The notes under the pieces are model-generated. The model was not told the DNA's origin and did no database searches. It was given only the letters and a program-made list of their open reading frames with translations. Of a DNA stretch of 64,000 nucleotides, positions 6,367 to 58,591 are shown one piece after another. How positions within the stretch are numbered: the stretch's first letter is position 1; every line of letters begins with the position of its first letter. Both the position numbers and the translations under genes were made by a program. Source of the DNA: a virus; the IMG/VR virus record IMGVR_UViG_3300029258_001212, positions 32,001-96,000 of that record; one strand, written 5' to 3'.

Positions 6367-6435
6367 TTGGCACGGCTGTTGCTTCTTCTTAATTAACCTT
6401 ATCTCTCTCTGTTAGAGGAGAAGAGTCTTGAGGGT
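6367..6435 (+). promoter_or_regulatory. dispersed repeat copy 1: sigma54-type promoter + TTAATTAA + dyad
   Basis: TTGGCACGGCTGTTGCT matches the TGGCACG-N4-TTGC consensus; downstream ~50 bp conserved in six copies. Confidence 0.8.
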
Positions 6436-6474
6436 TTGATTTGCGGGCCGTGGTGGCCCGGGGAGATTGGAGCC

Positions 6475-6738
6475 ATGAAACAAGATCGGAAACCGAAGAT
6501 GATCGGGTGGGTGTTCCTGGTGTTCGGGGGCATGTTCCTGTTGGGGACGGTGCTGTTCGGAATCATGGACCGCACCATCATGGACAACATCGCTGCGGCC
6601 GTGTGCGCGTGCGGGATGGTGTTGTCGGTGGGGTTCTGGGCGCACGTGTGGGTGGCGCGCCAGCGGCTCCGCCAGAGCGAGCTCCTGGAGATCCGGCTGC
6701 AACAGCTCGGTGAGCACTGGAAGGCGAGCGCCCGGTAG
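6475..6738 (+). CDS. small two-TM membrane protein
   Basis: Two hydrophobic segments; SD GGAG. Confidence 0.7.
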   Translation: MKQDRKPKMIGWVFLVFGGMFLLGTVLFGIMDRTIMDNIAAAVCACGMVLSVGFWAHVWVARQRLRQSELLEIRLQQLGEHWKASAR

Positions 6739-6803
6739 TGCTAGGATAGGGGCGCGAATCCAAGCAAGCCCCGGCCATCGTGCCGGCGAACAAGGAGGCA
6801 ACG

Positions 6804-7241
6804 ATGGATCGGCTAGACGCATTGCTCCAGGAGGAGCGGGGGCACCAGGGCCTGGTGGACCTTCCGGCCATTGGTGGTCCGGTGGTGGACGAGGGGGCAG
6901 ACCGGCACGCAGTCCATGAGCTGGAGCTCTATATCGACAACACTCACCAGCTCTACAAGGACAAGTGGGAAAACTTCTTCTCGAGTCTCACGCGCAAGGT
7001 GGCGGCCGGGAAGTATGATCGCAAGCGGGCGCTCAAGATGATGGGCTACCTGGTGGACCGCGCGGCCAAGGAGTACGCCAAGGAGTTCGGGGGCACTTGG
7101 AATCAGATCTTCTCGGTGCCCACCCGCAAGGCCGTGGCGGCGTCACAGGTGGAGGAGTTCGAAGATGTGGTGAAGGACTCTCCGGAGGACTTGGCCAAGT
7201 GGGTCCCCAAGAAGTACGCGAAGAACAAGCTCAAGATCTGA
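6804..7241 (+). CDS. conserved phage hypothetical domain (ELELYIDN...GKYD...AAKEYAKEFG) behind an acidic leader
   Basis: SD AAGGAGG; leader MDRLDALLQEE...VVDE|G. Confidence 0.75.
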   Translation: MDRLDALLQEERGHQGLVDLPAIGGPVVDEGADRHAVHELELYIDNTHQLYKDKWENFFSSLTRKVAAGKYDRKRALKMMGYLVDRAAKEYAKEFGGTWNQIFSVPTRKAVAASQVEEFEDVVKDSPEDLAKWVPKKYAKNKLKI

Positions 7242-7305
7242 GCTCCCTTCCATCGTTCGATCTGTCCGTGGTAAGCTGCCCTCCTCGCTGTAGGAGGAAC
7301 GCAGC

Positions 7306-7581
7306 ATGGCAGACACCAGGACCTATACGGCCGTCACATCCGAGGTGATGGACGCCATCCGTGCCGGCCTCGAGGCGGCAGCCATCGACATGCCAGATAC
7401 GCCAGATGGGGAGGTGACGTTCTTCGGCACCCTCCGGTTCAAGTTCGGGTACACCTGGGATGACCAGGCAGAGACCCTCGAGCTCGAGATCCTGGACAAG
7501 CCGTTCTTCGCCCCGGCGGACAAGCTGTGGGAGTACGCAGACGCGGGGGTGAGTGCGTGCGGGGGGACGCCTCCGGCATAG
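7306..7581 (+). CDS. hypothetical acidic protein
   Basis: SD AGGAGG; compact ORF. Confidence 0.7.
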   Translation: MADTRTYTAVTSEVMDAIRAGLEAAAIDMPDTPDGEVTFFGTLRFKFGYTWDDQAETLELEILDKPFFAPADKLWEYADAGVSACGGTPPA

Positions 7582-7619
7582 CAAGCGTGGCCCGGGGCTG
7601 GGCCACCAGGAGGGAGCCG

Positions 7620-7895
7620 ATGGCGAGCTCGTTTCGCGTTGGCGAAGCAGATCTGAATTCGTTGGCCAGGTTGGTATTCGAGAGCCCAACTCACTCCAGG
7701 CGCGTGTACGCGAAGCAAGGCGATGAGCTCAAGTACATCGAACGCAATGGGCGCGGAGGCCCGCGCGTGGGCGCGTGTACGGCGGAGGAGTTCCGGCTGT
7801 GGTGCTCGAGGCGCCAGGTGCGAAGCCGGCCAGCCACCAGGCGCGAGACGGCGCGGGACTGGAAGATCATCCGGGCGATGCCCGGCGAACCATGA
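7620..7895 (+). CDS. hypothetical protein
   Basis: SD AGGAGG/GGAG upstream of ATG 7620. Confidence 0.55.
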   Translation: MASSFRVGEADLNSLARLVFESPTHSRRVYAKQGDELKYIERNGRGGPRVGACTAEEFRLWCSRRQVRSRPATRRETARDWKIIRAMPGEP

Positions 7896-7926
7896 ACGGC
7901 CCCGAGGGGGCCAGGAGGAGTCCAAG

Positions 7927-8541
7927 ATGAAACGGATGATGCGAGTGCTCCCGGCAGTGCTGGCGGTGATGCTGGTGACCGGATGCGCGGACAAGTTCTT
8001 CGCGGCCAAGGTGGCCGTCCAGTCGGGCCGGGCGGCCCTGAGCATGGCGAACATTGGCCTGACCACGGCGGATAAGGCAAAGCAGGATGCGTGCAAGATC
8101 CCGATATGCGAAAAGGTGGACAAGCCGGGGACGGTGAAGTACCGAGCCTGCATGGGGCAGGACCACAGCGCGGATCCGACCTGGGTGAGCTGCTATGCCA
8201 AGTTTAAGCACTTCATGACGGTCACGTGGCCCCAAGCCGAGAAGACGGCCAACGCCGGGTTCACCACTGCGGAGGCGAGTATCACCTTGGCGGAGGCCCA
8301 GAAGTCAGGTCTCCCCTTGGACGTGCTACCCGTGGTGAAGGCCAGCGCCTGTTTCGTGGCCCAGGCCCTCGAGTTCCTACCCGAGAAAGCGAAAAAGACC
8401 GTTCAGATGTTCCTGGACATGATGAAGGCGTTTGGCTGCCAGGCGCCCCCGGCCCCGGCGGCAGCTCCGCCGGCCCCGGCGCCAAGACCCCCGGCGGCCC
8501 CTCCGGCAACCGATTCACGTCCAGCCCCCGCGCGCCCGTGA
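7927..8541 (+). CDS. predicted lipoprotein
   Basis: MKRMMRVLPAVLAVMLVTG|C signal peptide with lipobox; SD AGGAGGAG; Pro/Ala-rich tail. Confidence 0.8.
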   Translation: MKRMMRVLPAVLAVMLVTGCADKFFAAKVAVQSGRAALSMANIGLTTADKAKQDACKIPICEKVDKPGTVKYRACMGQDHSADPTWVSCYAKFKHFMTVTWPQAEKTANAGFTTAEASITLAEAQKSGLPLDVLPVVKASACFVAQALEFLPEKAKKTVQMFLDMMKAFGCQAPPAPAAAPPAPAPRPPAAPPATDSRPAPARP

Positions 8542-8774
8542 CTGCGGCGCGGGATCCCTTCGATCTGGTGTTCCCCCTGGCGGGCCAGGAGGAGGAGCCA
8601 GAGGAGCTGGTGTGGCCCCAGGCGCCTCGGAATTGCCCCACCTGTGGAAGCGGTAGGCTTCGCTCTGGTGAGGACGGACAGGGGCGCTACTGGCGGTGCC
8701 TGACGTGCAAGCGGACGGGCGCCATCGAACCCCGCTCAGAGCAGCCGCGTCGGTATCGGATCCGCAAGCGATAG
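8538..8774 (+). CDS. zinc-ribbon protein
   Basis: CPTC...CLTC; GTGA overlap with the upstream stop. Confidence 0.55.
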   Translation: MTAARDPFDLVFPLAGQEEEPEELVWPQAPRNCPTCGSGRLRSGEDGQGRYWRCLTCKRTGAIEPRSEQPRRYRIRKR

Positions 8775-8823
8775 ATTTCTCACGCGATCCCGGCTAGTAT
8801 CTTGGGGTGAAAGCGACACCAGC

Positions 8824-8976
8824 ATGGCTCGCATCAGTGGAATACTGTGCCGGATCTTCGGCCATTCGTGGTACACGGCCCGGGGGCAGAAGTTCCGATA
8901 TTGCCGGAGGTGTCGGCGCGTTCAGACAAGATCCCAAGCCAGCGATGAGTGGCAATGGATGAAGCAGTACCCATGA
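8824..8976 (+). CDS. small Cys/His protein, DUF1660-like (not in ORF track)
   Basis: Translated by hand: MARISGILCRIFGHSWYTARGQKFRYCRRCRRVQ...; LCxxFGHxW...CxRC pattern. Confidence 0.6.
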   Translation: MARISGILCRIFGHSWYTARGQKFRYCRRCRRVQTRSQASDEWQWMKQYP

Positions 8977-9083
8977 TGCCCGTAGCGCCTAACTTCGTGT
9001 CCGGGGCCAGCCTTGGCTTCGTGATCGGTTTCATGCTCGGGCTTCTGGTGGGATTCAATGCAGGCCAGGGGCCGCGAGGATGA
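8973..9083 (+). CDS. small single-TM peptide (not in ORF track)
   Basis: MMPVAPNFVSGASLGFVIGFMLGLLVGFNAGQGPRG; ATGA overlap; GxxxG repeats. Confidence 0.5.
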   Translation: MMPVAPNFVSGASLGFVIGFMLGLLVGFNAGQGPRG

Positions 9084-9091
9084 GGTAACAG

Positions 9092-10804
9092 ATGGCGAAC
9101 CTGGGCAATCGGATCGTCAACTACGTTCGGGGGATTTTCAGCCGCGACACCGAGGAGCGGATTGAGGCAGCCGGAGGGGTGAACGTCGGGGACTTCCCGA
9201 TGGATCCATTCGGAAACCTGCAAGTCCAGCACATCGGGCAGAACGTGGTCCAGGACGCCCTGATGGTGTCCAATGCTCTGATGGCGCGGATGATCGACTA
9301 CGAGCGCATGGATGAGTATCCGGACTGCAATGCCGCGTTGAACATCTACGCGGACGATGCAACGGTTCCAGATCCGAGCACAAACCATGTGATGTGGTCC
9401 GTGTGTCGGGACGAGCAGATCCGCGGGATGCTCGACACCATGCTACACAGGCGGCTCCACGTGGACGATGAAGCGTGGGAAGCGATCCGGATGCTGGTGA
9501 AGTACGGAAACGACTTCGAGGAGATCCTGGTCAACTCCCGCGGTGTCCAAGGACTCAACTTTCTTCCAGCGCCTACGTGCCGACGCCTCGAGGGGAAACA
9601 GGGCGAGCTCAAGGGCTTCGTGCAGAGCTTCAGGGGCAACTTCACGGTGAACCCAGGCCAGCTCCAGGGGATGCAGTTCCGCCAGGGCGTGGGGCGTGAG
9701 CCACGCAGCGGCGTGGCCCTCTTCGAGCCGTGGCGTGTGGTTCACATGCGGCTCCGGAGCAACCGGCGCCGGGCGATGTACGGGATCGGGATCCTCGAGG
9801 CGTGCAGGTGGGTCTGGAAGCGCCTCATTCTCCTCGAGGACGCGGCGCTGATCAGCCGGCTGGCTCGAGCTCCCAGTCGCTTCGCGTTCTACGTGGACGT
9901 GGGCAAGCTGTCCACCGAGAACGCGGAGAAGTACCTGGACGAGATGCGCCGGAAGCTCAAGAAAAAGAAGTTCGTGAACCCACGGACCGGCCAGCTCGAT
10001 CTACGATTCAACCCTCTGTCCACGGATGAGGATTTCTTCCTCCCGGTGCGCGACAGCCGGGAGGTGGTCCGAGCGGACGTGCTCAACACGCCCACCTGGA
10101 CGGGCGTGGAAGATGTGGCCTACTTCCGCGACAAGCTCCACGCCAGTCTGATGATCCCGAAGGCGTACCTGGGCTACGATGAGAATCTCCCGAGCCGCGC
10201 TACGCTCTCCCAGGAGGACGTGCGGTTCGCCCGGACGGTGCTCCGGGTCCAGCGCGAGTACAAGGCGGGGATGCGGAAGGTGGCCAAGGTACACCTCGCC
10301 AGTCAGGGGATCGATCCGGCCTATGTGGACTTCGATCTGGCCATGACGGTGCCGAGCTCCATCTTCGAGCTCGCACGCCTCGAGATCCAGAACACCCGAG
10401 CCACGTTCGCTGCCCAGATGGGTGAGCTCGTTTCGAAGCACTGGCTTCTCGCCAACGTGTTCAACTTCTCGGACGCTGAGATCGAAAAAGTGATGGTGCA
10501 GCGGCGCGAGGAGCTCACCGAGGAAATGAAGATCCAGCAAGGGCAATTCGAATCCAGGGCCCTCCCCGTCAGAAGCCCGAACCGAATGCTCACGGACAAC
10601 CGTTCCGCGCCAGCGCGCACGCGCGAGCTGTACGGCGTGGAGCGGGATCTGTTCGCAGGAAGCCGCGAAGCGGAGAAACGCCTCGAGGGACGACTGGACC
10701 AGATGCTCACCGAGAACAGGCGTTTCGGAATGCAGCTCGCGCAGATCCAATCCTTCCTGGGCGAGGTGCGCGGAGCCATTCGCACCTCCCAGATGCCTCG
10801 CTGA
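9092..10804 (+). CDS. portal protein, T4 gp20-like
   Basis: LILLEDAALISRLARAPSRFAFYVDVGKL, EDFFLPVR, EDVAYFRDKL, SQEDVRFARTVLRVQ. Confidence 0.93.
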   Translation: MANLGNRIVNYVRGIFSRDTEERIEAAGGVNVGDFPMDPFGNLQVQHIGQNVVQDALMVSNALMARMIDYERMDEYPDCNAALNIYADDATVPDPSTNHVMWSVCRDEQIRGMLDTMLHRRLHVDDEAWEAIRMLVKYGNDFEEILVNSRGVQGLNFLPAPTCRRLEGKQGELKGFVQSFRGNFTVNPGQLQGMQFRQGVGREPRSGVALFEPWRVVHMRLRSNRRRAMYGIGILEACRWVWKRLILLEDAALISRLARAPSRFAFYVDVGKLSTENAEKYLDEMRRKLKKKKFVNPRTGQLDLRFNPLSTDEDFFLPVRDSREVVRADVLNTPTWTGVEDVAYFRDKLHASLMIPKAYLGYDENLPSRATLSQEDVRFARTVLRVQREYKAGMRKVAKVHLASQGIDPAYVDFDLAMTVPSSIFELARLEIQNTRATFAAQMGELVSKHWLLANVFNFSDAEIEKVMVQRREELTEEMKIQQGQFESRALPVRSPNRMLTDNRSAPARTRELYGVERDLFAGSREAEKRLEGRLDQMLTENRRFGMQLAQIQSFLGEVRGAIRTSQMPR

Positions 10805-10893
10805 TTCGAATCAGATCCTACACAACACTTATATAAGTGTTCGACCCTCCTTGTTTTTTTCCCTTGACCCGTGTAGAACCGTGTATTGATAAT
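10801..10893 (+). promoter_or_regulatory. intergenic control region: palindromes and sigma70-like promoter of head operon
   Basis: Perfect palindromes CTGATTCGAATCAG (10801-10814) and AACACTTATATAAGTGTT (10824-10841); TTGACC-N18-GATAAT (10864-10893). Confidence 0.55.
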
Positions 10894-11014
10894 GACAAGG
10901 ATTCAGAGGCGATCCGATGCGAAAAGGTGATCTCTCCACAGAAGTGAGACTCTCCTGGTATTTCACCGGATCTCTCTGCCCTGAGCCCACCGTTACTGGG
11001 AGTGGACGGCCACG

Positions 11015-11947
11015 ATGAGCGGACTGATTCCGGCCAATGTGCTCGCAGGAGTGACCCGCGGATCTCTCGAGGATCACGTGGGTCGAGTGATCCAGGCGGT
11101 AGAGGACAGCCACGCAAGATTCGAATCCGAGACCGGGCAGGACCTGAACGTGATTGCGACGTTCAATGAGCATGTGGTGGTGGCCAACGGGGACGGCAAC
11201 GTCTACCGCGCCAGCTACCAGCCGGCCGGTGACGGGTTTTCCATCACGAAGGTGGAGCCAGTGGAGCTCCCGGTGATTCGCGGGCGCCAGGATGGCAGGC
11301 GCTTCGTGGAGCGCACTGCATCGGAGGCGGTGGAGGCTCTGGTGGCCGGGGACTTCTCATCGGCCCGTGATCAGATCCGCACCTTGATCGAAGCGGCTCC
11401 CATGGTGGCCCCGGCGGACCAGCTCCGCGAGCTCCGCGAGCACCTCTCCGGGATGTTCGATCCGGATCGCCCATGGCGCGCGTTCTACGCGGAGGACCAT
11501 GAGCGCATTCAGCGCCTGGTGTGGGGCACCACCGGCTCCGCCCTTTCCTACACCCCTCAACCCCGCTACCAGCCCCTGTACCGTGACGGTCTCCTCGAGG
11601 ACGCCAGCGAGTACGCTTCCGCCGTGGAGGCGGACGTGGGCGTGATGGCCGAGCGCCTGGAGAAGCTCTGGGAGCAGACCACCGAGGCGTGGGGCGAGTA
11701 CCAATCGACTGGTGCCTTCAAGGCTTCGGGCATCGCCCGGCCGGCCGAGCATTTCGAGACCATCGCTTCCGATTACCTGGTGGAGCTCAAAGCTCTCTGC
11801 CACCTGATGAGCGAGGCGGCCAAGGACAACGATCCGGATACTGTGGCGGCGCGCGGCTGGCTGTTTGACCAGGTGGCGCGGCAGTATCCCCAGGTGGAAG
11901 TGACGGCCCGGCTAGTGCGTCGGGTGGCCACTGAATTTGTGAGCTAA
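11015..11947 (+). CDS. head morphogenesis-associated hypothetical protein
   Basis: Lies between portal and core/protease genes; helical and acidic. Confidence 0.7.
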   Translation: MSGLIPANVLAGVTRGSLEDHVGRVIQAVEDSHARFESETGQDLNVIATFNEHVVVANGDGNVYRASYQPAGDGFSITKVEPVELPVIRGRQDGRRFVERTASEAVEALVAGDFSSARDQIRTLIEAAPMVAPADQLRELREHLSGMFDPDRPWRAFYAEDHERIQRLVWGTTGSALSYTPQPRYQPLYRDGLLEDASEYASAVEADVGVMAERLEKLWEQTTEAWGEYQSTGAFKASGIARPAEHFETIASDYLVELKALCHLMSEAAKDNDPDTVAARGWLFDQVARQYPQVEVTARLVRRVATEFVS

Positions 11948-11992
11948 AACGACGCCCCGGCTGGGGCTCAACGAATATCACGGAGGAGCACG

Positions 11993-13066
11993 ATGCAAAA
12001 CCGACCGATCCACACCCTGGCCGAGGACTTCCAGTACCTGGGTCTTCCGGTGGACGAGACGGACCACCTGGACGAGATGGACGCCCCGCCCGCGCCCGAC
12101 AAGAAGCAGGCGGCCATGCAGAAGAAGATGAACGTGGCCAAGACGAAGATGGCGGCGCTTCAGAAGAAAGCCCTCAAGGCCGGTGTGCCGGCGGAGGACG
12201 TGGAGCTGGCCATGCTGTCCGTCACCGAGGACGAGCTGGACGAGCTCCCCGAGGACATGGAGACGCTGGACGAGTTCAAGATCGTCAAGTTCTTCAAGAA
12301 CCTCCTCAAGAAAGGCAAGAAGAAGCCGTCCCGCGCCGAGCGGCTCAAGAAGGCCAAAAAGGCGAAGCAGTACCGCAAGGGCCGGGGCCGGTCCCAAGCC
12401 AAGCGGTATCGCAAGAGCTCCCGCTTCAAGAAGCTCAAGAAGCTCTACGCCAAGGCCAAGAAGATGGGCAAAAAGGCCGTGAAGGGCGCCCGGCGCAGCT
12501 TCGCGTCCATGCTCGGCTCGAGCACCGAGTACCCAGGTGGCCAGGAGCTGTCCGAGCTCGGGTCCATCATCAACGCCCTCGAGCACACCGAGGACAGCTC
12601 CCAGTACGCGGCCGGCTACGCCAACATCGCCAAGGCGGCAACGGCCACGGCCGGCGGTCTCCGCGAGCTGGACGAGAGCTACGTGGACATTCACTTCCCG
12701 CTGGACGAGGCGGCCGACTACTGCGAGCTCATCGCCGCGGAGGCCCGGGAGTTCCTGGGCGCCCTCGAGGAGCGCGACGGCACCATCAGCGTGGAGGACC
12801 AGCGGCTCCTGGACGAGCACCTCGCTGAGCTCCACGCGGAAGCCCTCGCCATGGCCAACTACGCCGACGACACCAACATCCTGGTGGCGCTGGACGAGGG
12901 GCGGATGCCCTTCGAGCAGGAGGTGGTGGAGAGCGAGGGTCTGTTCGGCGCGGAGCTGGACGAGGACGAGGACCTGTTCTTCGAGGACGAGGACGAGGAC
13001 GAGGAAGATCCCTTCGAGGGGATCCGCGGCGAAGTCGCCCTCATGTTCGGTATCCGTCACCGCTAG
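11993..13066 (+). CDS. prohead core / scaffold-like protein
   Basis: Very basic block (T4 gp68-like character) flanked by acidic regions with many LxE sites; directly precedes the protease. Confidence 0.65.
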   Translation: MQNRPIHTLAEDFQYLGLPVDETDHLDEMDAPPAPDKKQAAMQKKMNVAKTKMAALQKKALKAGVPAEDVELAMLSVTEDELDELPEDMETLDEFKIVKFFKNLLKKGKKKPSRAERLKKAKKAKQYRKGRGRSQAKRYRKSSRFKKLKKLYAKAKKMGKKAVKGARRSFASMLGSSTEYPGGQELSELGSIINALEHTEDSSQYAAGYANIAKAATATAGGLRELDESYVDIHFPLDEAADYCELIAAEAREFLGALEERDGTISVEDQRLLDEHLAELHAEALAMANYADDTNILVALDEGRMPFEQEVVESEGLFGAELDEDEDLFFEDEDEDEEDPFEGIRGEVALMFGIRHR

Positions 13067-13075
13067 GAGGCCACC

Positions 13076-14644: not shown

Positions 14645-14705
14645 GGGATCTCTTCCAGGAAAACCAACGCGCAATGAGCGCGTGAACCGGATTTAGGAGG
14701 CAGAA

Positions 14706-16205: not shown

Positions 16206-16221
16206 CGTGAGATCGTGTCAA

Positions 16222-16272: not shown

Positions 16273-16311
16273 GACTTCAGGTTTCAGGCTACTGCGGAGG
16301 AGGATTCCAAG

Positions 16312-16946: not shown

Positions 16947-17585
16947 ATGGCCACCCGAGCCAACGCACGGAAGTACAAACGCAACCCCGAGTACCCCGCG
17001 GAGCGGTTTAAGCTCAACGGGGTGCTGTTCACCGATGAGACCGTGGTGGAGGGAGACCACTGGGAGAAGTACACCACCCAGCTTTTCCCCAACATCCCCC
17101 CGCAGCTCGTCTACGCGCCCTCGGGTGACCAGGTGACCACCGGGGGCACGGCCCGGGCCGAGCGCCCCCAGCGCGACGTGGAGCCCCCCAAAGGCACCAC
17201 CACGGCAGCCTTCAAGCGCAGCGAGGAGGAGCCGGCGGCCGGGGACGGCAAGAAGACCCTGGTAGAGACCGGCTCCAAACCCAAGCCGGCTTCGAAGCAG
17301 GCCATCGTTCCCCCGGAACCGGAACCGGAACCGGAGCCCGAGCCCGAGCCCGAAGAGGAGCTCGAGGACGATGTGGAGCCGGAGGACCTGACGGTGATCA
17401 ATGGCGTGGGCGACAGCCGGGCCGAGTCCCTGGCGGAGGCAGGCTTCCCCACGGTGCAATCCGTGGCCAACGCGGACCCGGCGGTGCTCCTCCATGGTGT
17501 GCGTGAGACCGGGGCTCGCATGAACCTCGCCACGGCTCGCACCATCGTGCGCCAGGCCAAGGTGGCGGCCGGTCGGAAGGAATAA
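16947..17585 (+). CDS. helix-hairpin-helix domain protein with PE linker
   Basis: DLTVINGVGDSRAESLAEAGFPTVQSVANA; (PE)n repeat. Confidence 0.75.
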   Translation: MATRANARKYKRNPEYPAERFKLNGVLFTDETVVEGDHWEKYTTQLFPNIPPQLVYAPSGDQVTTGGTARAERPQRDVEPPKGTTTAAFKRSEEEPAAGDGKKTLVETGSKPKPASKQAIVPPEPEPEPEPEPEPEEELEDDVEPEDLTVINGVGDSRAESLAEAGFPTVQSVANADPAVLLHGVRETGARMNLATARTIVRQAKVAAGRKE

Positions 17586-17604: not shown

Positions 17605-17672
17605 ACCCTCTTGATTCTTATCTCTGAAGGATAGAGATAAGGTTAATTAAGAAGAAGCAACACCCGTGCCAA
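17605..17672 (-). promoter_or_regulatory. dispersed repeat copy 2 (sigma54 box, reverse orientation)
   Basis: Reverse complement TTGGCACGGGTGTTGCTTCTTCTTAATTAACCTTATCTCT...AGAGATAAG. Confidence 0.8.
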
Positions 17673-17685
17673 AGTGGAGGCACCC

Positions 17686-18486
17686 ATGATCTGGCCGACT
17701 CGCCCCCGACTTTGGGGCACCTACCTGGACGAGGTTGCGGTCCACAGTGACCCGGCCAAGCGGTTCCCTCCGCCCAGGGACCTGAACAACATCATCCAGG
17801 CCCATGCCTTCAAGACCTACGGCCAGGACAACAACACCAAGCGGGTGGCGATCAAGGGCTTCCAACGGCTCCTCAAGGGGCTCCGCTACAAGTACCGGAA
17901 CGATCCCACCATGGACCTGCACAGCGAGGAGTTTTTCACTCGTCTGGCGCGGGCCTCGAGGCGCTGGTGGGAGTCCAAGGGCCAGGCGGAGTACGAGAAG
18001 CTCATGGGCTTCCGGAAGCGCAAGCGGCGCAACATCAGGGCCGGGCGCGCACGCAAGCGCGCGGAGCTCATGGCCAAGGCCGAAAAGGAAGCGGCAGCGG
18101 CGGCGGCGAACGAATGGAGAGATCCGCTGTTCGGTGTTGTCCAGGACGTGATCACCGGCAACACCTGGGAGGGCGAGTACGCTCGCACCGTGCTGGGCGA
18201 GAAGCGCAAGGCGCCGAAGGTCCGCGGCAAGGTGAAGCGCGGCTCCACGGTGGAAGTGGTGGCTGCCAGGGGCCAGGACAAGCCGTTCCACGGAATGCGT
18301 GGTGAGGTGGTAGGCACCCGCCCCCATTTCGTCACCGTCAACTTCCCGGCCCTCGGTGAGATCGATGTGTTCACCGACAGTGTGCGCCTGGTGGAGCACA
18401 CCGAGCTCGAGGGGTGGCCGGCATGGGTGGTACAGGAAGATCTCGACGCTGTGGAGCTCGAGGGGGACCTGGATACGGGGTACTAG
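17686..18486 (+). CDS. basic protein with C-terminal KOW/SH3-like domain
   Basis: VKRGSTVEVVAARGQDKPFHGMRGEVV; SD GGAGG. Confidence 0.65.
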   Translation: MIWPTRPRLWGTYLDEVAVHSDPAKRFPPPRDLNNIIQAHAFKTYGQDNNTKRVAIKGFQRLLKGLRYKYRNDPTMDLHSEEFFTRLARASRRWWESKGQAEYEKLMGFRKRKRRNIRAGRARKRAELMAKAEKEAAAAAANEWRDPLFGVVQDVITGNTWEGEYARTVLGEKRKAPKVRGKVKRGSTVEVVAARGQDKPFHGMRGEVVGTRPHFVTVNFPALGEIDVFTDSVRLVEHTELEGWPAWVVQEDLDAVELEGDLDTGY

Positions 18487-21360: not shown

Positions 21361-21428
21361 TTGGCACGGGTGTTGCTTCTGCTTAATTAACCTTATCTCT
21401 CCCTTTGGAGAGTAAGAGTCAAGAGGGT
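21361..21428 (+). promoter_or_regulatory. dispersed repeat copy 3 (sigma54 box)
   Basis: TTGGCACGGGTGTTGCTTCTGCTTAATTAACCTTATCTCTCC...GGAGAGTAAGAGTCAAGAGGGT. Confidence 0.8.
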
Positions 21429-32773: not shown

Positions 32774-32817
32774 TTGACATGGGATCTACAACACCTGTAT
32801 AACTCTTGAGTAGATCC
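32774..32817 (+). promoter_or_regulatory. sigma70-like promoter with overlapping inverted repeat
   Basis: TTGACA (32774)-N18-TATAAC (32798); GGATCTAC (32782)...GTAGATCC (32810). Confidence 0.65.
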
Positions 32818-42006: not shown

Positions 42007-42074
42007 ACCCTCAAGACTCTTCTCTTCTAAGAGGGGAGATAAGGTTAATTAAGCAGAAGCAACAGGCGTGCCAA
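42007..42074 (-). promoter_or_regulatory. dispersed repeat copy 4 (sigma54 box, reverse orientation)
   Basis: Reverse complement TTGGCACGCCTGTTGCTTCTGCTTAATTAACCTTATCTCC...AAGAGTCTTGAGGGT. Confidence 0.8.
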
Positions 42075-49321: not shown

Positions 49322-49348
49322 GCCAACGATTGAACAAGGAGGATTGGA

Positions 49349-49843: not shown

Positions 49844-49845
49844 GG

Positions 49846-49913
49846 ACCCTCAAGACTCTTATCTCCATAAGGGGGAGATAAGGTTAATTAAGCAGAAGCA
49901 AAGGACGTGCCAA
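49846..49913 (-). promoter_or_regulatory. dispersed repeat copy 5 (sigma54 box, reverse orientation)
   Basis: Reverse complement TTGGCACGTCCTTTGCTTCTGCTTAATTAACCTTATCTCC-N7-GGAGATAAGAGTCTTGAGGGT. Confidence 0.8.
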
Positions 49914-49917
49914 CATC

Positions 49918-50910: not shown

Positions 50911-51872
50911 TGGATCTGACTGCGGTGAGCTGCAACGGCGGAGACGACGAATTCGTCCAGTACATCTTCCGGTTGCTTTCGGATGCGGACATTGCCTACT
51001 TCAAGCTGGGCGAGGGTGGCTTCGATCTGTCCGCGGTCCGCACCGAGATCGCCGGGTACGGCTCTGGGGCTACCACCTACAGCGGCACCCTCGAGCGGCT
51101 CCCTGTGGGTCGCAATGCCGTCACCATCACTGCGGATCCGCTTGGTTCCGCACAGGTGGTCACAGACGATGGTGCGGGGAACCTGTCCGGCGCTGGCGGA
51201 AGCGGGACGATCAATTACAAGACGGGCGAGTGGGAGGTGACGTTCAACGTCGCGGTGAGCGCTGGGGACCCTATCCAGGCGGACTACCAGTACCACGGCA
51301 CCTTGAGCTCCGAGCAGTCCAGCGACTTCGGGCTGGGCGACGGCACCAAAGGACCCTACTACCATGACCTGGAGAACCTCCCCGTGGCGGAGGGCACGCT
51401 CACAGTGAACGAGGAGGGGGGCCTGAGCCTCACTGATGACGGCAACGGCAACCTGGTGGGAGATGGCAGCGGCACGGTCAACTATGAGACTGGTGAAGTG
51501 TTCGCCTTGTTCTCTGGGGTGGTGGCGCTCCACAGCCGAATCACGGCCACCTACAAGTACGATGGAGCCCCGAAGGCACCAGACCCGACCCTCACGGATC
51601 TGGAATCCGAGGGAGACCCGAACCTCTACACGTTCCAGCGCGATTTCGAGGAAGGCGAAATCACGTTCGTGGAGACCACACGGGGGCGGATCCGCTGCAC
51701 CATCTACCTGGACCTGTGGGAAGGGATCGATGATGGGAACGGCTACACGCCGTACCTGTTTGAAGGAGGACTATTCAGCTCCAACGATGAGATGGCCGTC
51801 TACTTCACCTACGCGAAGATCAGGAAGACCGGCTCCACGCGCATCGACTTCGATGTGGACACGGTGCTGTAG
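50910..51872 (+). CDS. tail fibre attachment (collar-like) protein, paralog A
   Basis: YFKLGEGG...FEGGLFSS...YFTYAKIRK; two DDG modules. Confidence 0.7.
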   Translation: MDLTAVSCNGGDDEFVQYIFRLLSDADIAYFKLGEGGFDLSAVRTEIAGYGSGATTYSGTLERLPVGRNAVTITADPLGSAQVVTDDGAGNLSGAGGSGTINYKTGEWEVTFNVAVSAGDPIQADYQYHGTLSSEQSSDFGLGDGTKGPYYHDLENLPVAEGTLTVNEEGGLSLTDDGNGNLVGDGSGTVNYETGEVFALFSGVVALHSRITATYKYDGAPKAPDPTLTDLESEGDPNLYTFQRDFEEGEITFVETTRGRIRCTIYLDLWEGIDDGNGYTPYLFEGGLFSSNDEMAVYFTYAKIRKTGSTRIDFDVDTVL

Positions 51873-51881
51873 GGGTTCGCC

Positions 51882-52826
51882 ATGGATAAAACTTGGACCA
51901 TGTACCGGAATCAGCTTTTTACTCCCAACTTCTGGTTCTACGATTGGATGGCGTTCCTGATCCCGATCTTGGAGTCCAACGGCTGGACGCTGATCGGCTG
52001 GGGCGAGGGCGGGTTCAGTGGTGGGGGCGCCTACTACTGGGATCGCAGCGGGGTCACAACGCCGTTCTCTACCAGCCAGACGAATTGCTGGGCATGTCTC
52101 CAGGCGCCGGACAACGGTGACGGCAAGACGCGCCCTGAGATCGTGTGGCAGGAGCCGTGGTCCACCAACGATCTGCGGATGTGGGTGCGGCACGAAGGCG
52201 GCTATACCAATGCTGGGATCGATTCGCACATCCGTCCTACGGCCGGGGACGGCGGCGAGATGGGGCGCACGTCCACCGATCTGGAATCCAACTCCGGAAC
52301 CGCTGCGAGTAGGTGGACGTTCTGCGTGGCAAGCGACGGGTCCTACATCGCCTACAGCTCCACCAGGAACAACGCATCCGCCATGTCTGCCTTCGTGCGT
52401 TGCATGGACGTGGAGGAGCTCGACCTGTATCCCTACGCTTGCTTCCACCGGAGTTCCTACAACTACCAGATGATCGATATTTGGCAGTTTTCCTACCAGA
52501 ACGGCAACGCGAGCATCATGGCGTACCACCCGACAGCGGGGGACATTTGGGGCAACAACGGGGCCAGTGCGGACGGGTACGGGATCGCCAAGCTCTACTG
52601 CGGAGGTGGCGATATTCGGCCTGGCATAGATCCAGTGACCGGTGAGCCGACGATGTACGGAATGCACGTCATGAGCTGGGGATCTTATGGTCACGTGAAA
52701 GGGCGCCTTCCGGATATGTTCTACTCTGGGATGGCCAACAACGACCGGGTGAACAGCGGCGAGTATATCCAGTGCGGCCACCTGATGCTGCCATGGGGTT
52801 CTGATTCGGAGGTTGTGGTCCCATGA
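51882..52826 (+). CDS. virion structural protein, paralog B
   Basis: Shares W.YRN, NGWT, DPVTG and KG.LPD motifs with the next gene. Confidence 0.65.
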   Translation: MDKTWTMYRNQLFTPNFWFYDWMAFLIPILESNGWTLIGWGEGGFSGGGAYYWDRSGVTTPFSTSQTNCWACLQAPDNGDGKTRPEIVWQEPWSTNDLRMWVRHEGGYTNAGIDSHIRPTAGDGGEMGRTSTDLESNSGTAASRWTFCVASDGSYIAYSSTRNNASAMSAFVRCMDVEELDLYPYACFHRSSYNYQMIDIWQFSYQNGNASIMAYHPTAGDIWGNNGASADGYGIAKLYCGGGDIRPGIDPVTGEPTMYGMHVMSWGSYGHVKGRLPDMFYSGMANNDRVNSGEYIQCGHLMLPWGSDSEVVVP

Positions 52827-53737
52827 CCGTTTGGAACATCTACCGGAACGACATTCCGTACACCGGCGGCAGCTACGATCCACGCGGGCGAAACGCCTGG
52901 TATCAGATCAAGGAGCGCCTGGTAGAAAACGGGTGGACTATTCTCGGCACCGGGAATGGCAGCTCGAGCTTCGATGTGTCCGGAGGAGATCTCTGGACTT
53001 CGGCTGGCGCCATGTCCGGAGGGTGCTGGCTTTGGATCAAGAACATCGAAGATGTGGAGTGCGTGCTCTGGTATCAGGACATTTACAACTGGTGGCTGTG
53101 GGCCAGCTTTGACGGATTCAACACCACTGGTGTGAGCGCCTCTAGCCCGCCCGGCAATTCGAGTCCACCGGCAGACCTGTGCAACCCCGGTGCAGACGGA
53201 AACAATGATCTCGCGCCTTACGTGGATTGCTACGCTACCCTCCTGGTGAACGAGACTTCGTTCCTGACGTTTGGGCGCACGGGCAACAACTATCGCGGTG
53301 TGCCGTCCATGTGCTTCGTGAAGCTGGACGTGCGAGACCAGACGGATCCATATCCGTATTGGTTTCGCGTGTGGGGGTACAACAGCTACAGCTCGAGCAA
53401 CAAGGCTTGGCTGTCAGTGCGGATGGAGGACACGCGAGGTAACAACAGGGGGCGACACCCTGGCGGGAACGTGTACCAATACAGTGCGGCAAAGTACCAA
53501 ACCCCGCGGAGCGCCATGATGGACACGATGCCAGATGATCCGGTTACCGGTGACCCTGTGCTCCACAACGTGTGGATCTGTTGTTTCGACAATCAGCACG
53601 TGCGCGGGAAGATCCCAGACGTGTATCGCGTGAGCGAGCTCAAGGCAGACGGGACGCATCTGCACGATGATGCGTTTGTAGTGTGCTCGGACTACTGTTT
53701 TCCGTGGGAGTCCACGGACACCCTGTGGGGGACATAG
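52823..53737 (+). CDS. virion structural protein, paralog B'
   Basis: WNIYRN, ENGWT, DPVTGDP, VRGKIPD. Confidence 0.65.
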   Translation: MTVWNIYRNDIPYTGGSYDPRGRNAWYQIKERLVENGWTILGTGNGSSSFDVSGGDLWTSAGAMSGGCWLWIKNIEDVECVLWYQDIYNWWLWASFDGFNTTGVSASSPPGNSSPPADLCNPGADGNNDLAPYVDCYATLLVNETSFLTFGRTGNNYRGVPSMCFVKLDVRDQTDPYPYWFRVWGYNSYSSSNKAWLSVRMEDTRGNNRGRHPGGNVYQYSAAKYQTPRSAMMDTMPDDPVTGDPVLHNVWICCFDNQHVRGKIPDVYRVSELKADGTHLHDDAFVVCSDYCFPWESTDTLWGT

Positions 53738-53740
53738 GAT

Positions 53741-54775
53741 ATGGCCGATTACACTGCTACGCCGTTCGCCCCAGGGTTCTACGATCCGTTCATCCCCCCG
53801 GACCCGATTCCGGACCCGACCGTGATCAATGTGGTGGTCTGCGATGTGGGCCGGGACGAGCTAATCAAGCTCCGCGGTGGCCTCGGTGGATCCCAAGTGG
53901 GCTACTTCAAGTTTGGCTGTGGTGGCTGGGCTCCAGGCGCAGAGCTCGCTGAGCAAGCTGGCATCAGCACGGGGAGCGCCACGGTGCTCGGCCAGACCAC
54001 CAAGTACGTTGTGGCCCCTGGAACAGTGTCCGTGACGGTGGACGGCCAGACCGTAACTGATGATGGAGCTGGGAACCTGGTGGGGACCGGCGCCAGTGGC
54101 ACGATCAACTACCTGAGCGGTGCCTTCACCATCACGTTCACTACGCCCCCGGCGGGGGCCCAGCCGGTGATGGCCACCTACCGGACCGGGGGCACCGAAT
54201 CGGACTACCTGATGCAAGACGGTGCCATCGGCAACGGGGGCACCGGGCCGTACACTGGGACCCTGATCGGTGTGCCCGTGGTGCCCGGCTCCGCGGTGTT
54301 CTGGGATTGCTTCTCCCAGTACCTGATGGACAATGGCTCTGGCGTCCTGGTGGACCCGTCTGGCGGTGGGGGCTCCGGCACCATCGACTACGAGACCGGC
54401 GACTTCTCGGTGACGTTTGGATCCATCGTGGAGAACCTGTGCCCGATCCGCGTCACCCATCGCTACTGGCGGCGCCCATGGCAGCCGAACGCCGGCCAGA
54501 CAGATCTGGACGCGGTGGACAAGGGGCTGTTCACGATCCGCAAGGACTTGGAGCTCACGGACACGGTGTACCAGGGCGCTGGGACGCGCACCGTGCGTGT
54601 TACATGCGAGCTCGAGGCGGCCGAAGGGAACGATGACGGATCTGGAGCCGCTCCGGTGTACTATGAAGGTGGGATCTACACGTCCGACGACGTGCTGGTG
54701 ATGTACTTCACCTGGCCCGGAATCAAAAAGACCAGCGCGGCGGCCCTGACCCGCGTGATTGACTTGGTGGTGTGA
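53741..54775 (+). CDS. tail fibre attachment (collar-like) protein, paralog A'
   Basis: YFKFGCGG...YEGGIYTS...YFTWPGIKKT; two DDG modules. Confidence 0.7.
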   Translation: MADYTATPFAPGFYDPFIPPDPIPDPTVINVVVCDVGRDELIKLRGGLGGSQVGYFKFGCGGWAPGAELAEQAGISTGSATVLGQTTKYVVAPGTVSVTVDGQTVTDDGAGNLVGTGASGTINYLSGAFTITFTTPPAGAQPVMATYRTGGTESDYLMQDGAIGNGGTGPYTGTLIGVPVVPGSAVFWDCFSQYLMDNGSGVLVDPSGGGGSGTIDYETGDFSVTFGSIVENLCPIRVTHRYWRRPWQPNAGQTDLDAVDKGLFTIRKDLELTDTVYQGAGTRTVRVTCELEAAEGNDDGSGAAPVYYEGGIYTSDDVLVMYFTWPGIKKTSAAALTRVIDLVV

Positions 54776-57700
54776 CCATGGCGTTTCCGCAGTCCCTGAG
54801 CATCGTAGCAGACAACCTCAAGGCCCGATTCGAGGAGCCCTATGTGAGCGCGGCGATCAACCGCATGGGCTCCGGGCTTCCTCGAGGGATCTACCGCGGG
54901 TTCACCGTGGAGCAGATGGACACCCCCGGGGCCGGGGTGAAGATCTCTCCTGCGAGCGGCCGGGACAGCTTCGCGCTGCACGAAGATCTGGCCAACGGAT
55001 ACAAGCTGGCGATCCGATTCGATGCAGCCTTCGATTTCGAGTTTGAATTCGATGCCAGTGCGGCCTCCTTGGACCTGTACCTTTGGCTGGACGCCACCTA
55101 CCAGGTGAGCTCCACGGTCACGGGCTACGTGCGCGTGGGCGAGATCGGGGACCTTGGGGCCAACTCCATCCCGTTCGCCAAGCTCGAGATCCCCCTGGGG
55201 GCCACCACCATCCTGACCAGCTACGTGAGCCAGCTTGACAGCATGGCCAACACGCTCGAGCCCGTGCCGAGCACCACCTACCAGAACCCCTACGGGTTCA
55301 TGAATCAGGATGCGTGGGACCGGCTTCCGGACCAGGACCAGAAAGACGCAATGGACGCGGCGAGCTCCCCGAGCTCGAGCAATCCGTTCGCCACCATCAG
55401 CGCCACCGAAGCCCGGGTGTTCGCCAAGAAGACCACCCAGGTGGTGACCGTGACCCCTCCGGTGGCCAGCTTCCAGCTCCTGGGCACCTGGTACATCGGG
55501 AAGGGCGCGGTCGGTACGGCCAAGAAGTGGTTTGAGCTGTTTCGTGCCAGTGGCGGCGAGGCGCTCGAGGAGGGGCTCCGCGACTACTACACGTGGGAGC
55601 AGATTCAGATCTCCGGGATCTATGACAGCACCAACACATCACAGCTCATCCCGAGCTCGGACGCGGACGCGGATGGATTCTACGAAAACCCATTCATTCG
55701 CATGAGCCCCACCGTTGAGGTGTGGACTGAGGTGGCAGTCAAGGCCGGTGCCAAGTCTACCTTCGGTTCGTTGGACGTGCAGGAGTACACCAAGGGAGTC
55801 CTGGGTGTACGCGAGGGGATGAGCGCCGTCACCAGCGAGTTCATCAGGGAGCACGCTCCAAGCGTGCTGGTGGTGAGCGAAGTGAGCGGACAGCGCACGG
55901 ATTTCTCCGGCTCATCTTCCCTAGCGAGCGCCATTTCGTGGCTCGAGAGCGAGAATATCAATGGCACGATCTACGTGCGTGACCCTGGAAGCATCGCCTC
56001 TACTGGCCAGTGGTTTTCCGGCACCATTGCGATTACCCAGAAGATCAAGATCGTTTTCGAGGAGGGGGCAACGTGTCGGGTCTTCTCTCCGCTATCCACC
56101 CCCATCTTCCAGCTCGCCGGAAGCTACGCGAGCCTGGAGCTGGTGAACGCCAGCGTCACCAGTACCACCAGTGGGTACGTGTTCATCGACTCCAAAACGA
56201 ATGGCGGTGACGTGCGCTTGGTGAATACCCGGATGGGTGAGGCGTGCGAGTTCGGTGATGGCATGGTGGAGTTCCTGGACTGCGTGTTCCTGGACGATGC
56301 CCATGTGGAGTTCGTTGGCTCATACGGCCGCGTGGTGAACACCCGTTTCGCCGGCCAGGTGATTTGTGACGATGTGGGGAGGGCGCTGGTTCAGGGGAGC
56401 GGATACGCGGACCGCCTGATGTTCCAGACGTGCAGCTTCATCCCGAATGCGGTTGCCGGGCTCACGGACGAGTACGCCTTGGTGATTACTGGGAGCACCG
56501 AGAACCATGCCTATGTGGTGTTTCGGGACTGCGAGATCGATCCGGCTGTCACCAACTCCGGGGAAGGGGGAGGCGTCTGGATCGATGAGGATGCAGAGAC
56601 CGGGGACATTTTGTTTGAGGATTGCAGGATTGCCCAAAAAGACAGTGGATCCATCTTCCCGTCGTGCCTCTACGTGGAGACCAACCTGGCGGAGGGGATC
56701 ACCCTGACGCTGGACAAGGTGTCCTTTGTCCACCGTGGGATCAACTACGGTGTGTTCATCGGCCAGCGCGGAAGTGGTGGCGGCTACGGCCGGCTCACGG
56801 TACGAGACTGCAAGCTCAAGTACGATCACCCTGTCAACACCAACATCGGGGTGGCCCTGTTCGCCATTACTGGCGCTGGCCAGAAGATGCTGGTGGACGT
56901 TCACGGCCTCGAGATCGACATGGGCGAGGGCGAGCCCAACTTCGTTGCGGGGAGCGATGCTCTGCGAGGGGTATTTTGCCTGGACTGCACGGCCGGTTCT
57001 CAGGAGCACGTCCTGGAGGACATTGTGTTCAAGAATGTCGGCTACGGCCGTACCTTCGATCACGATGACAACTGCCTGTTGAACGTGAGCGACGTGAGCG
57101 GCGCGGAGGCCAGCGTCAAGATCGTCCGGCCGGCCATCGTTAATTACAGCTCCACGGTGGGGGGCACCGCGTTCGGACTCACAGCCATTCGGCTGCGGAA
57201 CGTGGAACAGCGCGGCCAGGTGGACATTGTGGCGGCGAACCTTCCCGGCCCAGACCCGCAAGTGGCCACCGAGTCCTATAAGGGGGTCTACATCACCAAC
57301 AGTGCCACCTACGGCTCGGTGAACATCATCGGCGGCTCCATCAAAAACTGGCAGACGAATGACGTTCACTGCGATGCGTTCTGCCGCTTGGTGATCGATG
57401 GGATGCACCATGTCAGCGTGGGGTCTGACCGGCACAAGTCTGGCCAACTGAATGCGCGGATCCGGGTGGACGACATTCTGAGCCTGGTGGTGGCCAACTG
57501 CGTTTACGAGGATCAGATGGGGAGCTCGAGTGCAGACCAGCGGGTGTGGCTCGGGATCGATTACCTGAGCGACTATCCCAACGGCGGCCCCTACGGGGTG
57601 AGCGTGACTGGGAATTCGGTGGCCATGGTTGGAACATCGCCCAACTTCGGCCGGGCGCTCTGGGTCAACACAATGGTGGTGAGCTTCCCGGATGCTTGTG

Positions 57701-57837
57701 TCATGAGCAACTCCGGCCAGGGACGAGCTCGGTATCCGGGCGGAGGGAGCACGAATCGGATCGTGGGCCTGAGTGGAAACAATCTCACCAGGAGCACTAC
57801 CTTCAACTTCAACACTTGGGACCTGGAGGAGGTGTAG
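54772..57837 (+). CDS. tail spike / receptor-binding protein with probable beta-helix
   Basis: N-terminal PRGIYRGF attachment motif; repeated FxDCxI/F coils. Confidence 0.7.
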   Translation: MTMAFPQSLSIVADNLKARFEEPYVSAAINRMGSGLPRGIYRGFTVEQMDTPGAGVKISPASGRDSFALHEDLANGYKLAIRFDAAFDFEFEFDASAASLDLYLWLDATYQVSSTVTGYVRVGEIGDLGANSIPFAKLEIPLGATTILTSYVSQLDSMANTLEPVPSTTYQNPYGFMNQDAWDRLPDQDQKDAMDAASSPSSSNPFATISATEARVFAKKTTQVVTVTPPVASFQLLGTWYIGKGAVGTAKKWFELFRASGGEALEEGLRDYYTWEQIQISGIYDSTNTSQLIPSSDADADGFYENPFIRMSPTVEVWTEVAVKAGAKSTFGSLDVQEYTKGVLGVREGMSAVTSEFIREHAPSVLVVSEVSGQRTDFSGSSSLASAISWLESENINGTIYVRDPGSIASTGQWFSGTIAITQKIKIVFEEGATCRVFSPLSTPIFQLAGSYASLELVNASVTSTTSGYVFIDSKTNGGDVRLVNTRMGEACEFGDGMVEFLDCVFLDDAHVEFVGSYGRVVNTRFAGQVICDDVGRALVQGSGYADRLMFQTCSFIPNAVAGLTDEYALVITGSTENHAYVVFRDCEIDPAVTNSGEGGGVWIDEDAETGDILFEDCRIAQKDSGSIFPSCLYVETNLAEGITLTLDKVSFVHRGINYGVFIGQRGSGGGYGRLTVRDCKLKYDHPVNTNIGVALFAITGAGQKMLVDVHGLEIDMGEGEPNFVAGSDALRGVFCLDCTAGSQEHVLEDIVFKNVGYGRTFDHDDNCLLNVSDVSGAEASVKIVRPAIVNYSSTVGGTAFGLTAIRLRNVEQRGQVDIVAANLPGPDPQVATESYKGVYITNSATYGSVNIIGGSIKNWQTNDVHCDAFCRLVIDGMHHVSVGSDRHKSGQLNARIRVDDILSLVVANCVYEDQMGSSSADQRVWLGIDYLSDYPNGGPYGVSVTGNSVAMVGTSPNFGRALWVNTMVVSFPDACVMSNSGQGRARYPGGGSTNRIVGLSGNNLTRSTTFNFNTWDLEEV

Positions 57838-57840
57838 GCC

Positions 57841-58509
57841 ATGGCCGGTCTGCTTTCGCTGGTGGGGAGCTGGATGGGGGGGCAAAAAACAGGGTTCATA
57901 CAGAGCTCCGGGGCGAACGTCTATCTATTGCCGTGTACCCCCGAGGGGAACATCGACACCACGTGGCTCCGTGCGTTCCAGTTCTGGCCCCCGTCGATTG
58001 CGGACAACTACTCCCCCAATTGGAGCAACAAGACGATCCCGGGTGGCTCGGTGCCCCTGTACCAGTTCATCGCCATGGGGGAGCACACCATCAGCTTCAC
58101 AGCTACATTCGCCCGAGACCTGGCGGGGGAGTTCGGGCCGGCCCCCGGGCAACTCACCGAGAACAAGCACGACGTGGACATTGAAGCGGCTATCGCCTAC
58201 CTGCGAAGCCTGAGCACCCCGACCTATGACACCAAGAAGCAGTTTGTCCTGCCCCCGCCGCTGATCTACCTGACCATCCCCTACAACGCCATCGCTCCGA
58301 GCGAGGGGATCGCAGACGAGATGCTCTGCATCATGACCCAGTGCGACGTGGAGCGGAAGCGGTGGTTCCCTGATGGGACCACCCGGCTGGCGGAGGCGAC
58401 CCTGCAATTCAATGAGGTGGCCCAGAGGCCGAAGGCCACCCAGTGGTACGGCCGGACCCAGTGGCAAAAGGTGGCCAAGAATTACAAGTGGCAGGGCCAG
58501 AAGCCGTGA
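57841..58509 (+). CDS. CIS-tube-like baseplate protein (tube initiator)
   Basis: FQFWPPSIADNYSPNW...IPGGSVPLYQF...ISF; PPP; WFPDGTTRLAEATLQFNE. Confidence 0.75.
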   Translation: MAGLLSLVGSWMGGQKTGFIQSSGANVYLLPCTPEGNIDTTWLRAFQFWPPSIADNYSPNWSNKTIPGGSVPLYQFIAMGEHTISFTATFARDLAGEFGPAPGQLTENKHDVDIEAAIAYLRSLSTPTYDTKKQFVLPPPLIYLTIPYNAIAPSEGIADEMLCIMTQCDVERKRWFPDGTTRLAEATLQFNEVAQRPKATQWYGRTQWQKVAKNYKWQGQKP

Positions 58510-58522
58510 CCTGCCATCGGAG

Positions 58523-58591
58523 ACCCTCAAGACTCTTCTCTTCTAAGAGGGGAGATAGGGTATAGAGAAACAGAAGCAACAGGTGTGCCAA
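58523..58591 (-). promoter_or_regulatory. dispersed repeat copy 6 (sigma54 box, TTAATTAA lost)
   Basis: Reverse complement TTGGCACACCTGTTGCTTCTGTTTCTCTATACCCTATCTCC...AAGAGTCTTGAGGGT. Confidence 0.75.

Follow-up and report, generated by a model that had tools for sequence, protein, structure and literature searches.

Twelve copies of a sigma-54 promoter-like cassette, most of them facing against the genes, in the genome of an uncultured tailed phage

Introduction

The DNA analysed here, hereafter the window, is a stretch of 64,000 nucleotides corresponding to bases 32001-96000 of the 153,540-bp IMG/VR virus record IMGVR_UViG_3300029258_001212. According to codon-position GC analysis, nearly all genes of this genome lie on the + strand, which is also the strand of every family match: portal, prohead protease, T4-type major capsid protein, sheath, baseplate hub and wedge, DnaB-like helicase, primase, ParB and amidase. 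Judged from its portal, protease, capsid, sheath and baseplate genes, the genome is that of an uncultured tailed phage, a myovirus, in line with the viral origin assigned to the window in a first-pass annotation. Dispersed between the genes are copies of a 68-69-nt cassette that begins with a sequence of the sigma-54 promoter type and continues with a hairpin and a Shine-Dalgarno (SD)-like end.

Sigma-54 is the only bacterial sigma factor that binds its promoters stably and yet requires an ATP-driven activator to start transcription. Phages are not known to base their gene programmes on this factor, the sole precedent that we found being a single promoter of Pseudomonas phage YuA, and our literature search returned no paper on a dispersed sigma-54 cassette family in a phage. 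The first-pass annotation reported six copies in the window and proposed that they form a sigma-54-based control unit, for example promoters with a downstream operator, ~55-nt hairpin RNA genes or decoys for the holoenzyme. The main puzzle, absent from that account, is that a majority of the copies point against all genes.

Copies and anatomy of the cassette

The 20-nt box pattern TTGGCACR-N4-TTGCTTCT, scanned with up to two mismatches, has exactly six sites in the window, all with zero mismatches, where shuffled sequences lead one to expect 0.01. These are the six copies initially reported, at 6367 (+), 17605 (-), 21361 (+), 42007 (-), 49846 (-) and 58523 (-). When the scan was extended to the whole genome, as had been proposed, a profile search recovered exactly 12 copies, four in sense (+) and eight in antisense (-) orientation, and zero partial copies. 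The description of the six as intergenic and AT-rich holds for all 12, in a genome of 64% GC. Alignment of the copies with 100-nt flanks limits their homology to 68-69 nt, ending at the element edges.

Each copy is laid out as TTGGCAC-N5-TTGCTTCT, one or two bases, the palindrome TTAATTAA, CC, a hairpin and AAGAGTC(AA/TT)GAGGGT. The hairpin is made of a pyrimidine arm (CTTATCTCY...), a loop of 4-7 nt and a purine arm. In the sense copy at 21361..21428 (+), for instance, the -24/-12 core TGGCAC-N5-TTGCT occupies 21362..21377, the same positions as in every copy; TTAATTAA, the predicted melting and start region, lies at 21383..21390; the hairpin spans 21392..21416; and the SD-like end GAGGGT covers 21423..21428. 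All six window copies have a perfect core, as do 11 of the 12 in the whole genome; the twelfth reads TGGCAT. As for TTAATTAA, its 10 occurrences in the genome (0.17 expected) are all within elements. With +1 placed 12 nt after the C of the GC, it covers -5 to +3, as had been stated; the predicted start site, found by counting, falls within it and 2-4 nt before the base of the hairpin.

Orientation and gene context

The four sense copies lie 1-10 nt past a stop codon and directly before open reading frames (ORFs) with normal codon-position GC, whose starts are found at +5, +39, +14 and +6 nt. In two of these four, both outside the window, GAGGGT is the sole SD sequence, 5-6 nt before the ATG. 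Within the window, the 69-nt copy at 6367..6435 (+) begins 10 nt after the stop of the upstream + gene and is followed by a gene for a small membrane protein (ATG at 6475, with its own GGAG), which heads the portal/protease/major capsid block. The copy at 21361 follows a TAG stop by 2 nt and precedes a 234-aa gene that starts from 21443, has its own GGAGG and heads the neck/tail block.

Antisense copies make up eight of the 12 in the genome and four of the six in the window. Seven of the eight, those for which an upstream gene was called, start 2-19 nt past the stop of the upstream + gene. For at least three antisense copies, at window 17605, window 49846 and genome 98417, no more than 17 nt separate the far end from the start of the next + gene. 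The minus-strand ORFs behind antisense copies all have the codon-position GC profile of an antisense frame, and the + strand genes whose gaps these copies occupy have family matches. The copy at 17605..17672 (-) lies between an HHH-domain gene ending at 17585 and a GGAGG with ATG at 17686, at the end of the head block, with no credible minus-strand gene behind it. At 42007..42074 (-), a copy with the hairpin variant that we call 'type e' stands 7 nt past the stop of the baseplate hub/spike gene (Phage_base_V), where the tail block ends. The copy at 49846..49913 (-) begins 2 nt past a stop, and the ATG of a Tail_P2_I-like baseplate gene comes 4 nt beyond it. The last one, at 58523..58591 (-), 13 nt past a stop, is again of 'type e', and its TTAATTAA has diverged while its box is intact. 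The head block is opened by the sense copy 6367 and closed by the antisense copy 17605, and the neck/tail block is opened by the sense copy 21361 and closed, after the hub gene, by the antisense copy 42007; the copies at 49846 and 58523 are found among baseplate genes.

Selection on the box

A sister phage, IMGVR_UViG_3300028920_000034, shares 92% identity with the studied one across 90% of the genome and carries all 12 copies at orthologous positions and in identical orientations. We compared 15 box positions and 5 spacer positions per copy over the 12 ortholog pairs: changes affect 3 of 180 box positions versus 10 of 60 positions in the N5 spacer (Fisher p = 7.7e-5). None of the 24 copies of the two genomes, 16 of which are antisense, has lost GG, GC or the GG-N10-GC spacing. 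The sigma-54 box thus behaves as a constrained -24/-12 site, and the observations of the first-pass annotation, an invariant spacing and variation at the N positions of the consensus, hold in this wider set, where variation is concentrated in N5. Homogenisation between copies is insufficient, by itself, to yield invariant boxes with seven different spacers, because a conversion tract covering the box includes its spacer. For this reason we read the box as being under direct purifying selection in both orientations.

Exchange between copies and gain of the family

For three of the 12 copies in the sister genome, a non-orthologous copy is a closer match than the positional ortholog. The tracts exchanged are partial: some copies have swapped the hairpin half only, and others the box half only. 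Moreover, two ORF-sized indels adjoin antisense copies. In the sister genome, the HHH-domain gene and the ortholog of the 17605 copy are separated by an additional ORF of ~90 aa (60717-60985 in reverse-complemented sister coordinates), and this ortholog has switched hairpin type and reads GTGC instead of TTGC. The studied genome, for its part, has an extra 114-aa ORF, absent from the sister, that adjoins an antisense copy. A 21-bp perfect inverted repeat flanks this ORF (genome 125384-125404 / 125772-125792; L046:9384-9404, 9772-9792), with its right arm forming the immediate downstream flank of the antisense copy and its left arm located in the 5' leader of the 114-aa ORF. The repeat derives from the downstream flank of the cassette; this arrangement hints that antisense copies originate when a unit of promoter plus leader is duplicated in inverted orientation.

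Neither a copy nor an enrichment of the motif is present in relatives at 51-72% capsid identity, whose GC contents range from 39% to 66%, and no analogous cassettes were found in them. In one of these relatives (L028), the junction orthologous to that of the 17605 copy is a compact, bare stop-SD-ATG. From the cassette-free relatives and this bare junction, the sequence comparison indicates that this lineage acquired the cassette family through insertions at compact junctions. The box pattern has zero matches in 185,579 bacterial and archaeal species genomes, and its metagenome matches are limited to the sister phage contig. A host REP/MITE family with no constraint on the box had been considered as an alternative origin; we found neither a copy in those species genomes nor a relaxed box.

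In a scan of IMG/VR for the box, the matches listed were mostly single, with one stacked array. The latter belongs to IMGVR_UViG_3300025121_000154 (L122:7330-7470), an unrelated 19-kb viral contig where five tandem sigma-54-type boxes, ~26 nt apart, read TTGGCACG-N4-TTGCT, the last one with ATGCT. The 26-nt period is probably too tight for several adjacent holoenzymes.

Folding of the hairpin

In a fixed register, 77% of the cells pair, no more than after column shuffles, and there is one two-sided change. The covariation initially claimed for the dyad therefore comes down to one compensatory pair, from C-G to U-A in the 17.6-kb copy, and does not go beyond shuffles. The right arm drifts while almost no variation is seen in the left one, a one-sided conservation that does not fit the downstream operator formerly suggested. 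Folding potential itself is real, since the minimum free energy of most variants lies far below that of right-arm shuffles. Over the two genomes, the fold is more stable on the + RNA in 14 of the 16 antisense copies, and slightly better on the minus strand in six of the eight sense copies. Six of the 24 copies are of 'type e'; all six are antisense, at four positions in the sister versus two here. As the better-folding strand of antisense copies is that of the sense mRNA, their hairpin is probably read in the + strand message.

No Rfam family matched the 64-kb window at the gathering score, and a terminator scan returned nothing at the elements beyond chance: stems are weak and there is no U-tract. 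With no consistent terminator, no Rfam match and a quarter of the copies ('type e') unfolded on the transcript strand, the notion of ~55-nt hairpin RNA genes was abandoned. We also rejected roadblock-assisted termination at the hairpin, as our estimate of the footprints has an oncoming polymerase stalling before transcription of the hairpin is complete.

Host and other features of the genome

No close cultured relative was matched by megablast, the nearest cultured phages having at most 34% capsid identity. Searches for host clues found no tRNAs, and for the endolysin (Atlas) viral clusters only. A capsid profile run over 401 genomes of one phylum matched solely a metagenome-assembled genome (MAG) of Ignavibacteriaceae. 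Its 125-kb contig CAZLJI010000001.1 encodes a capsid protein 70% identical to that of the studied phage, with the same head-gene order and a GC content of 39% versus 64%; either the hosts of the clade differ widely in base composition or this contig is mis-binned. A terminase, sought as a landmark for the fourth sense copy, was not found. A 303-aa AAA+ protein encoded at 608-1516 (+) in the window is closest to ComM/Mg-chelatase, with GSGR rather than GSGK in its Walker A motif and no GAFTGA loop.

The 'direct terminal repeat' of the record (genome 1-144 and 153397-153540) is an exact overlap of 144 bp, apparently coding. It looks like the mark of an assembly that closed a circular or permuted map rather than a physical repeat, and on account of this overlap the genome map was treated as circular. 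A good match to a sigma-70-type promoter (TTGACA, ~18 nt, TATAAC) is located at window positions 32774-32805, in a short gap before a tail gene; because of this match, the phage probably relies on ordinary host promoters as well. An 18-bp AT-rich perfect palindrome (AACACTTATATAAGTGTT) occurs at 10824-10841, in the gap that follows the portal gene, with a sigma-70-like TTGACC-N18-GATAAT close to it at 10864-10893. Further along the genome, at 104280-104425 (L045:8280-8425), a sequence close to GGAAGTTTTCTTCTACATGGTC is repeated three times in tandem in an AT-rich gap. A 486-aa ORF lies downstream, with HTH_36, DnaB-like and primase genes in the vicinity, and the array looks like an iteron-type replication origin.

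Discussion

The explanation that we favour, with a probability of about one in two, is a recombining cassette resembling the promoter-early stem-loops (PeSLs) of T4-type phages and built on a host sigma-54 promoter, whose sense copies would be enhancer-dependent promoters and whose antisense copies would be selected backward sites. Cassette DNA would constitute a high-affinity docking site for the host sigma-54 (RpoN) RNA polymerase. Binding of the holoenzyme, taken separately, is likely, given a chance match of ~1e-4 and a pattern of variation that follows the bipartite -24/-12 organization. At the sense copies (four of 12; 6367 and 21361 in the window), transcription is predicted to start inside TTAATTAA, ~12 nt past the -12 GC; the resulting RNA would have a hairpin at its 5' end and supply a GAGGG ribosome-binding site to the first gene of the block. 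The blocks driven in this way would be a set of small early-type genes, the head block, the neck/tail block and one further block. We read these copies as promoters because a full promoter, 5' hairpin, SD and ATG are arranged in order at block heads. The antisense copies (eight of 12; 17605, 42007, 49846 and 58523 in the window) would be inverted insertions into once-compact stop/start junctions, and they most likely still hold a backward-facing sigma-54 holoenzyme, since selection has kept their box. Such complexes may drive regulated antisense transcription that enters the preceding block from its end, or persist as silent closed complexes acting as an insulator or a sink, and the hairpin of these copies would have drifted toward folding in the sense mRNA.

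Several results weigh against this explanation. Two thirds of the copies oppose every gene, an arrangement that would be costly if they fired. Up to 250 nt on either side of the copies, no motif or k-mer is shared beyond what random windows share, and thus no common enhancer site was found. Six-frame searches for an RpoN domain (PF04552, PF04963) in the phage were negative, and so was the search for a GAFTGA activator, with a ComM/Mg-chelatase-like AAA+ protein as the sole match to Sigma54_activat (PF00158); both genes had been proposed as checks in the first-pass annotation. The only hint of a host rpoN comes from the related phage contig in the Ignavibacteriaceae MAG, which encodes rpoN, and the phage concerned is a relative without the cassette. 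All sites are near-consensus, which fits binding strength as well as regulation. Finally, folding favours the strand opposite the sigma-54 transcript, where the hairpin gains 2.4 kcal/mol on average, and 'type e' reaches -9.0 kcal/mol on the complement versus -2.7 on the transcript strand. Since this variant folds so poorly there, the hairpin cannot be indispensable to an antisense RNA made by sigma-54.

The holoenzyme decoy envisaged at the outset is a live rival, although an unlikely one. All 12 sites would then bind holoenzyme as silent closed complexes irrespective of orientation, and none would fire: as phage DNA multiplies, they would titrate host sigma-54 from its own regulons, possibly of defence or stress, or else the silent complexes would act as roadblocks insulating gene blocks. 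Near-perfect consensus at all sites, a mixed orientation of four versus eight, selection on the box in antisense copies, the lack of any enhancer site or activator found in the phage and the five tandem boxes of 26-nt period in another viral contig are all in agreement with such a sink, as is the situation in Escherichia coli, where most sigma-54 sites are bound as transcriptionally inactive holoenzyme (PMC4591121). In that species, however, intragenic sigma-54 binding left the expression of overlapping genes unchanged (PMC4591121), and a sink leaves unexplained both the conserved leader, hairpin and SD and the precise arrangement of promoter, SD and ATG at the four sense copies. The leader takes precedence if the hairpin and UUAAUUAA are a processing or stability signal in the + polycistronic RNA and the sigma-54 box is secondary, the hairpin protecting the upstream message from its 3' end at antisense copies and the downstream message from its 5' end at sense copies. 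This would suit the palindromic TTAATTAA, a hairpin formed on + RNA in either orientation, the more stable + RNA folds of 14 of 16 antisense copies and the 'type e' variant, which folds on + RNA only and occupies four sister positions versus two here. It is nonetheless improbable: the constraint on the box is left unexplained, six of eight sense copies fold slightly better on the minus strand, there is no U-tract terminator, and fixed-register covariation is no higher than in shuffles.

Exchange of segments between copies would also be expected at a site for a phage-encoded DNA-binding or recombination protein, for example one at which cassettes are shuffled or one that forms the inverted end of a mobile unit, in which case the sigma-54 likeness would be coincidental. 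The ORF indels adjoining copies, the 21-bp inverted repeat around the 114-aa ORF and the convergent copies that bracket the head and tail blocks point the same way. We deem this very improbable, however, as a chance match to the 10-13 specified consensus positions has a probability of ~1e-4 per 68-nt element, no recombinase or transposase was found among the ~70 larger proteins scanned against Pfam and PHROGs, the sister genome has an ortholog at each of the 12 positions, and no target-site duplications were noticed in the flanks, where no formal test was made. An invertible segment was discarded in view of the same scan of ~70 larger proteins, which has no recombinase, and of the identical orientations in both genomes. 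A scarcely credible possibility, lastly, is a face-to-face dual promoter whose complement strand would carry a long-spacer sigma-70 promoter (TTGACT-N21/22-TAAGGT), driven by a MerR-type regulator and competing with sigma-54. On the complement strand, TTGACT or TTGATT is present in eight of the 12 copies; one protein of the phage has a MerR-type helix-turn-helix; and for at least three antisense copies (17605, 49846 and genome 98417) a + gene starts no more than 17 nt from the box end of the copy. Yet the other four copies, three of the eight antisense ones among them, have AAGACT instead; the 21-22-nt spacer is longer than even the 19-nt spacer of mer promoters; the candidate -10 matches three of six positions; and a sigma-70 consensus scan flags no element.

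The PeSL-like sigma-54 cassette shares features with several known systems. As in the bacterial sigma-54 promoters glnAp2, pspA and nifH, GG and GC stand one helical turn apart in TGGCAC-N5-TTGCW, the start region is AT-rich and the spacer is free. Unlike these promoters, the cassette exists as 12 near-identical viral copies, two thirds of which oppose all genes, has no upstream activator site and no cognate activator that we could find, and is fused to a hairpin/SD leader. Mycobacteriophage stoperators are 13-bp repressor sites, oriented with transcription and dispersed in intergenic gaps. They resemble the cassette in being many short, oriented, dispersed sites where a bound protein can affect passing transcription, but no repressor is implicated here. 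PeSLs of T4-type phages combine sigma-70-like early promoters with GC-rich terminator stem-loops in hyperplastic regions (PMC2839356, PMC4122927). Common to PeSLs and the cassette are a repeated unit of promoter, stem-loop, SD and start codon spanning the gap from stop to start, recombination between copies and adjacent ORF indels, and the studied phage has T4-type head genes. The cassette differs in being of sigma-54 type, with no strong sigma-70-like early promoter in our scan, in its weak, AT-rich hairpin devoid of a terminator, in the inversion of eight of its 12 copies and in its location among head, tail and baseplate genes. In Pseudomonas phage YuA, a sigma-54-like promoter has been mapped (Ceyssens 2008, cited and re-mapped in bioRxiv 10.1101/2023.10.13.562163). 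It likewise places a sigma-54-like motif in a phage promoter region, but YuA has a single site, not a dispersed repeat family, and no antisense set is reported for it. The intragenic and antisense sigma-54 sites of E. coli are conserved, bound as inactive holoenzyme and largely unexplained in function (PMC4591121); they lie inside host genes and are not repeats, whereas the phage units are intergenic and identical.

A perfect site spread over twelve junctions, and kept backward under selection at eight of them, offers a natural test for the purpose of silent or antisense sigma-54 complexes, a question that ChIP-seq (chromatin immunoprecipitation sequencing) work in E. coli left open. It is a tentative and rather doubtful idea that backward-facing sigma-54 closed complexes are a deliberate phage device, in which high-affinity sites where gene blocks end would park host holoenzyme against phage transcription. 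Under the control of a host stress activator, backward complexes could be antisense promoters that are switched on or off; they could also serve as insulators or as a sigma-54 sink. If they are such a device, head and tail expression would be sigma-54-dependent through an activator of a new kind, and the device may be widespread, as the five-box stack in another viral contig suggests. The cassette would extend the PeSL concept of promoter-bearing recombination linkers past sigma-70 and the classical T4-like phages, and it may represent a new viral means of timing late genes or of disarming host sigma-54 regulons.

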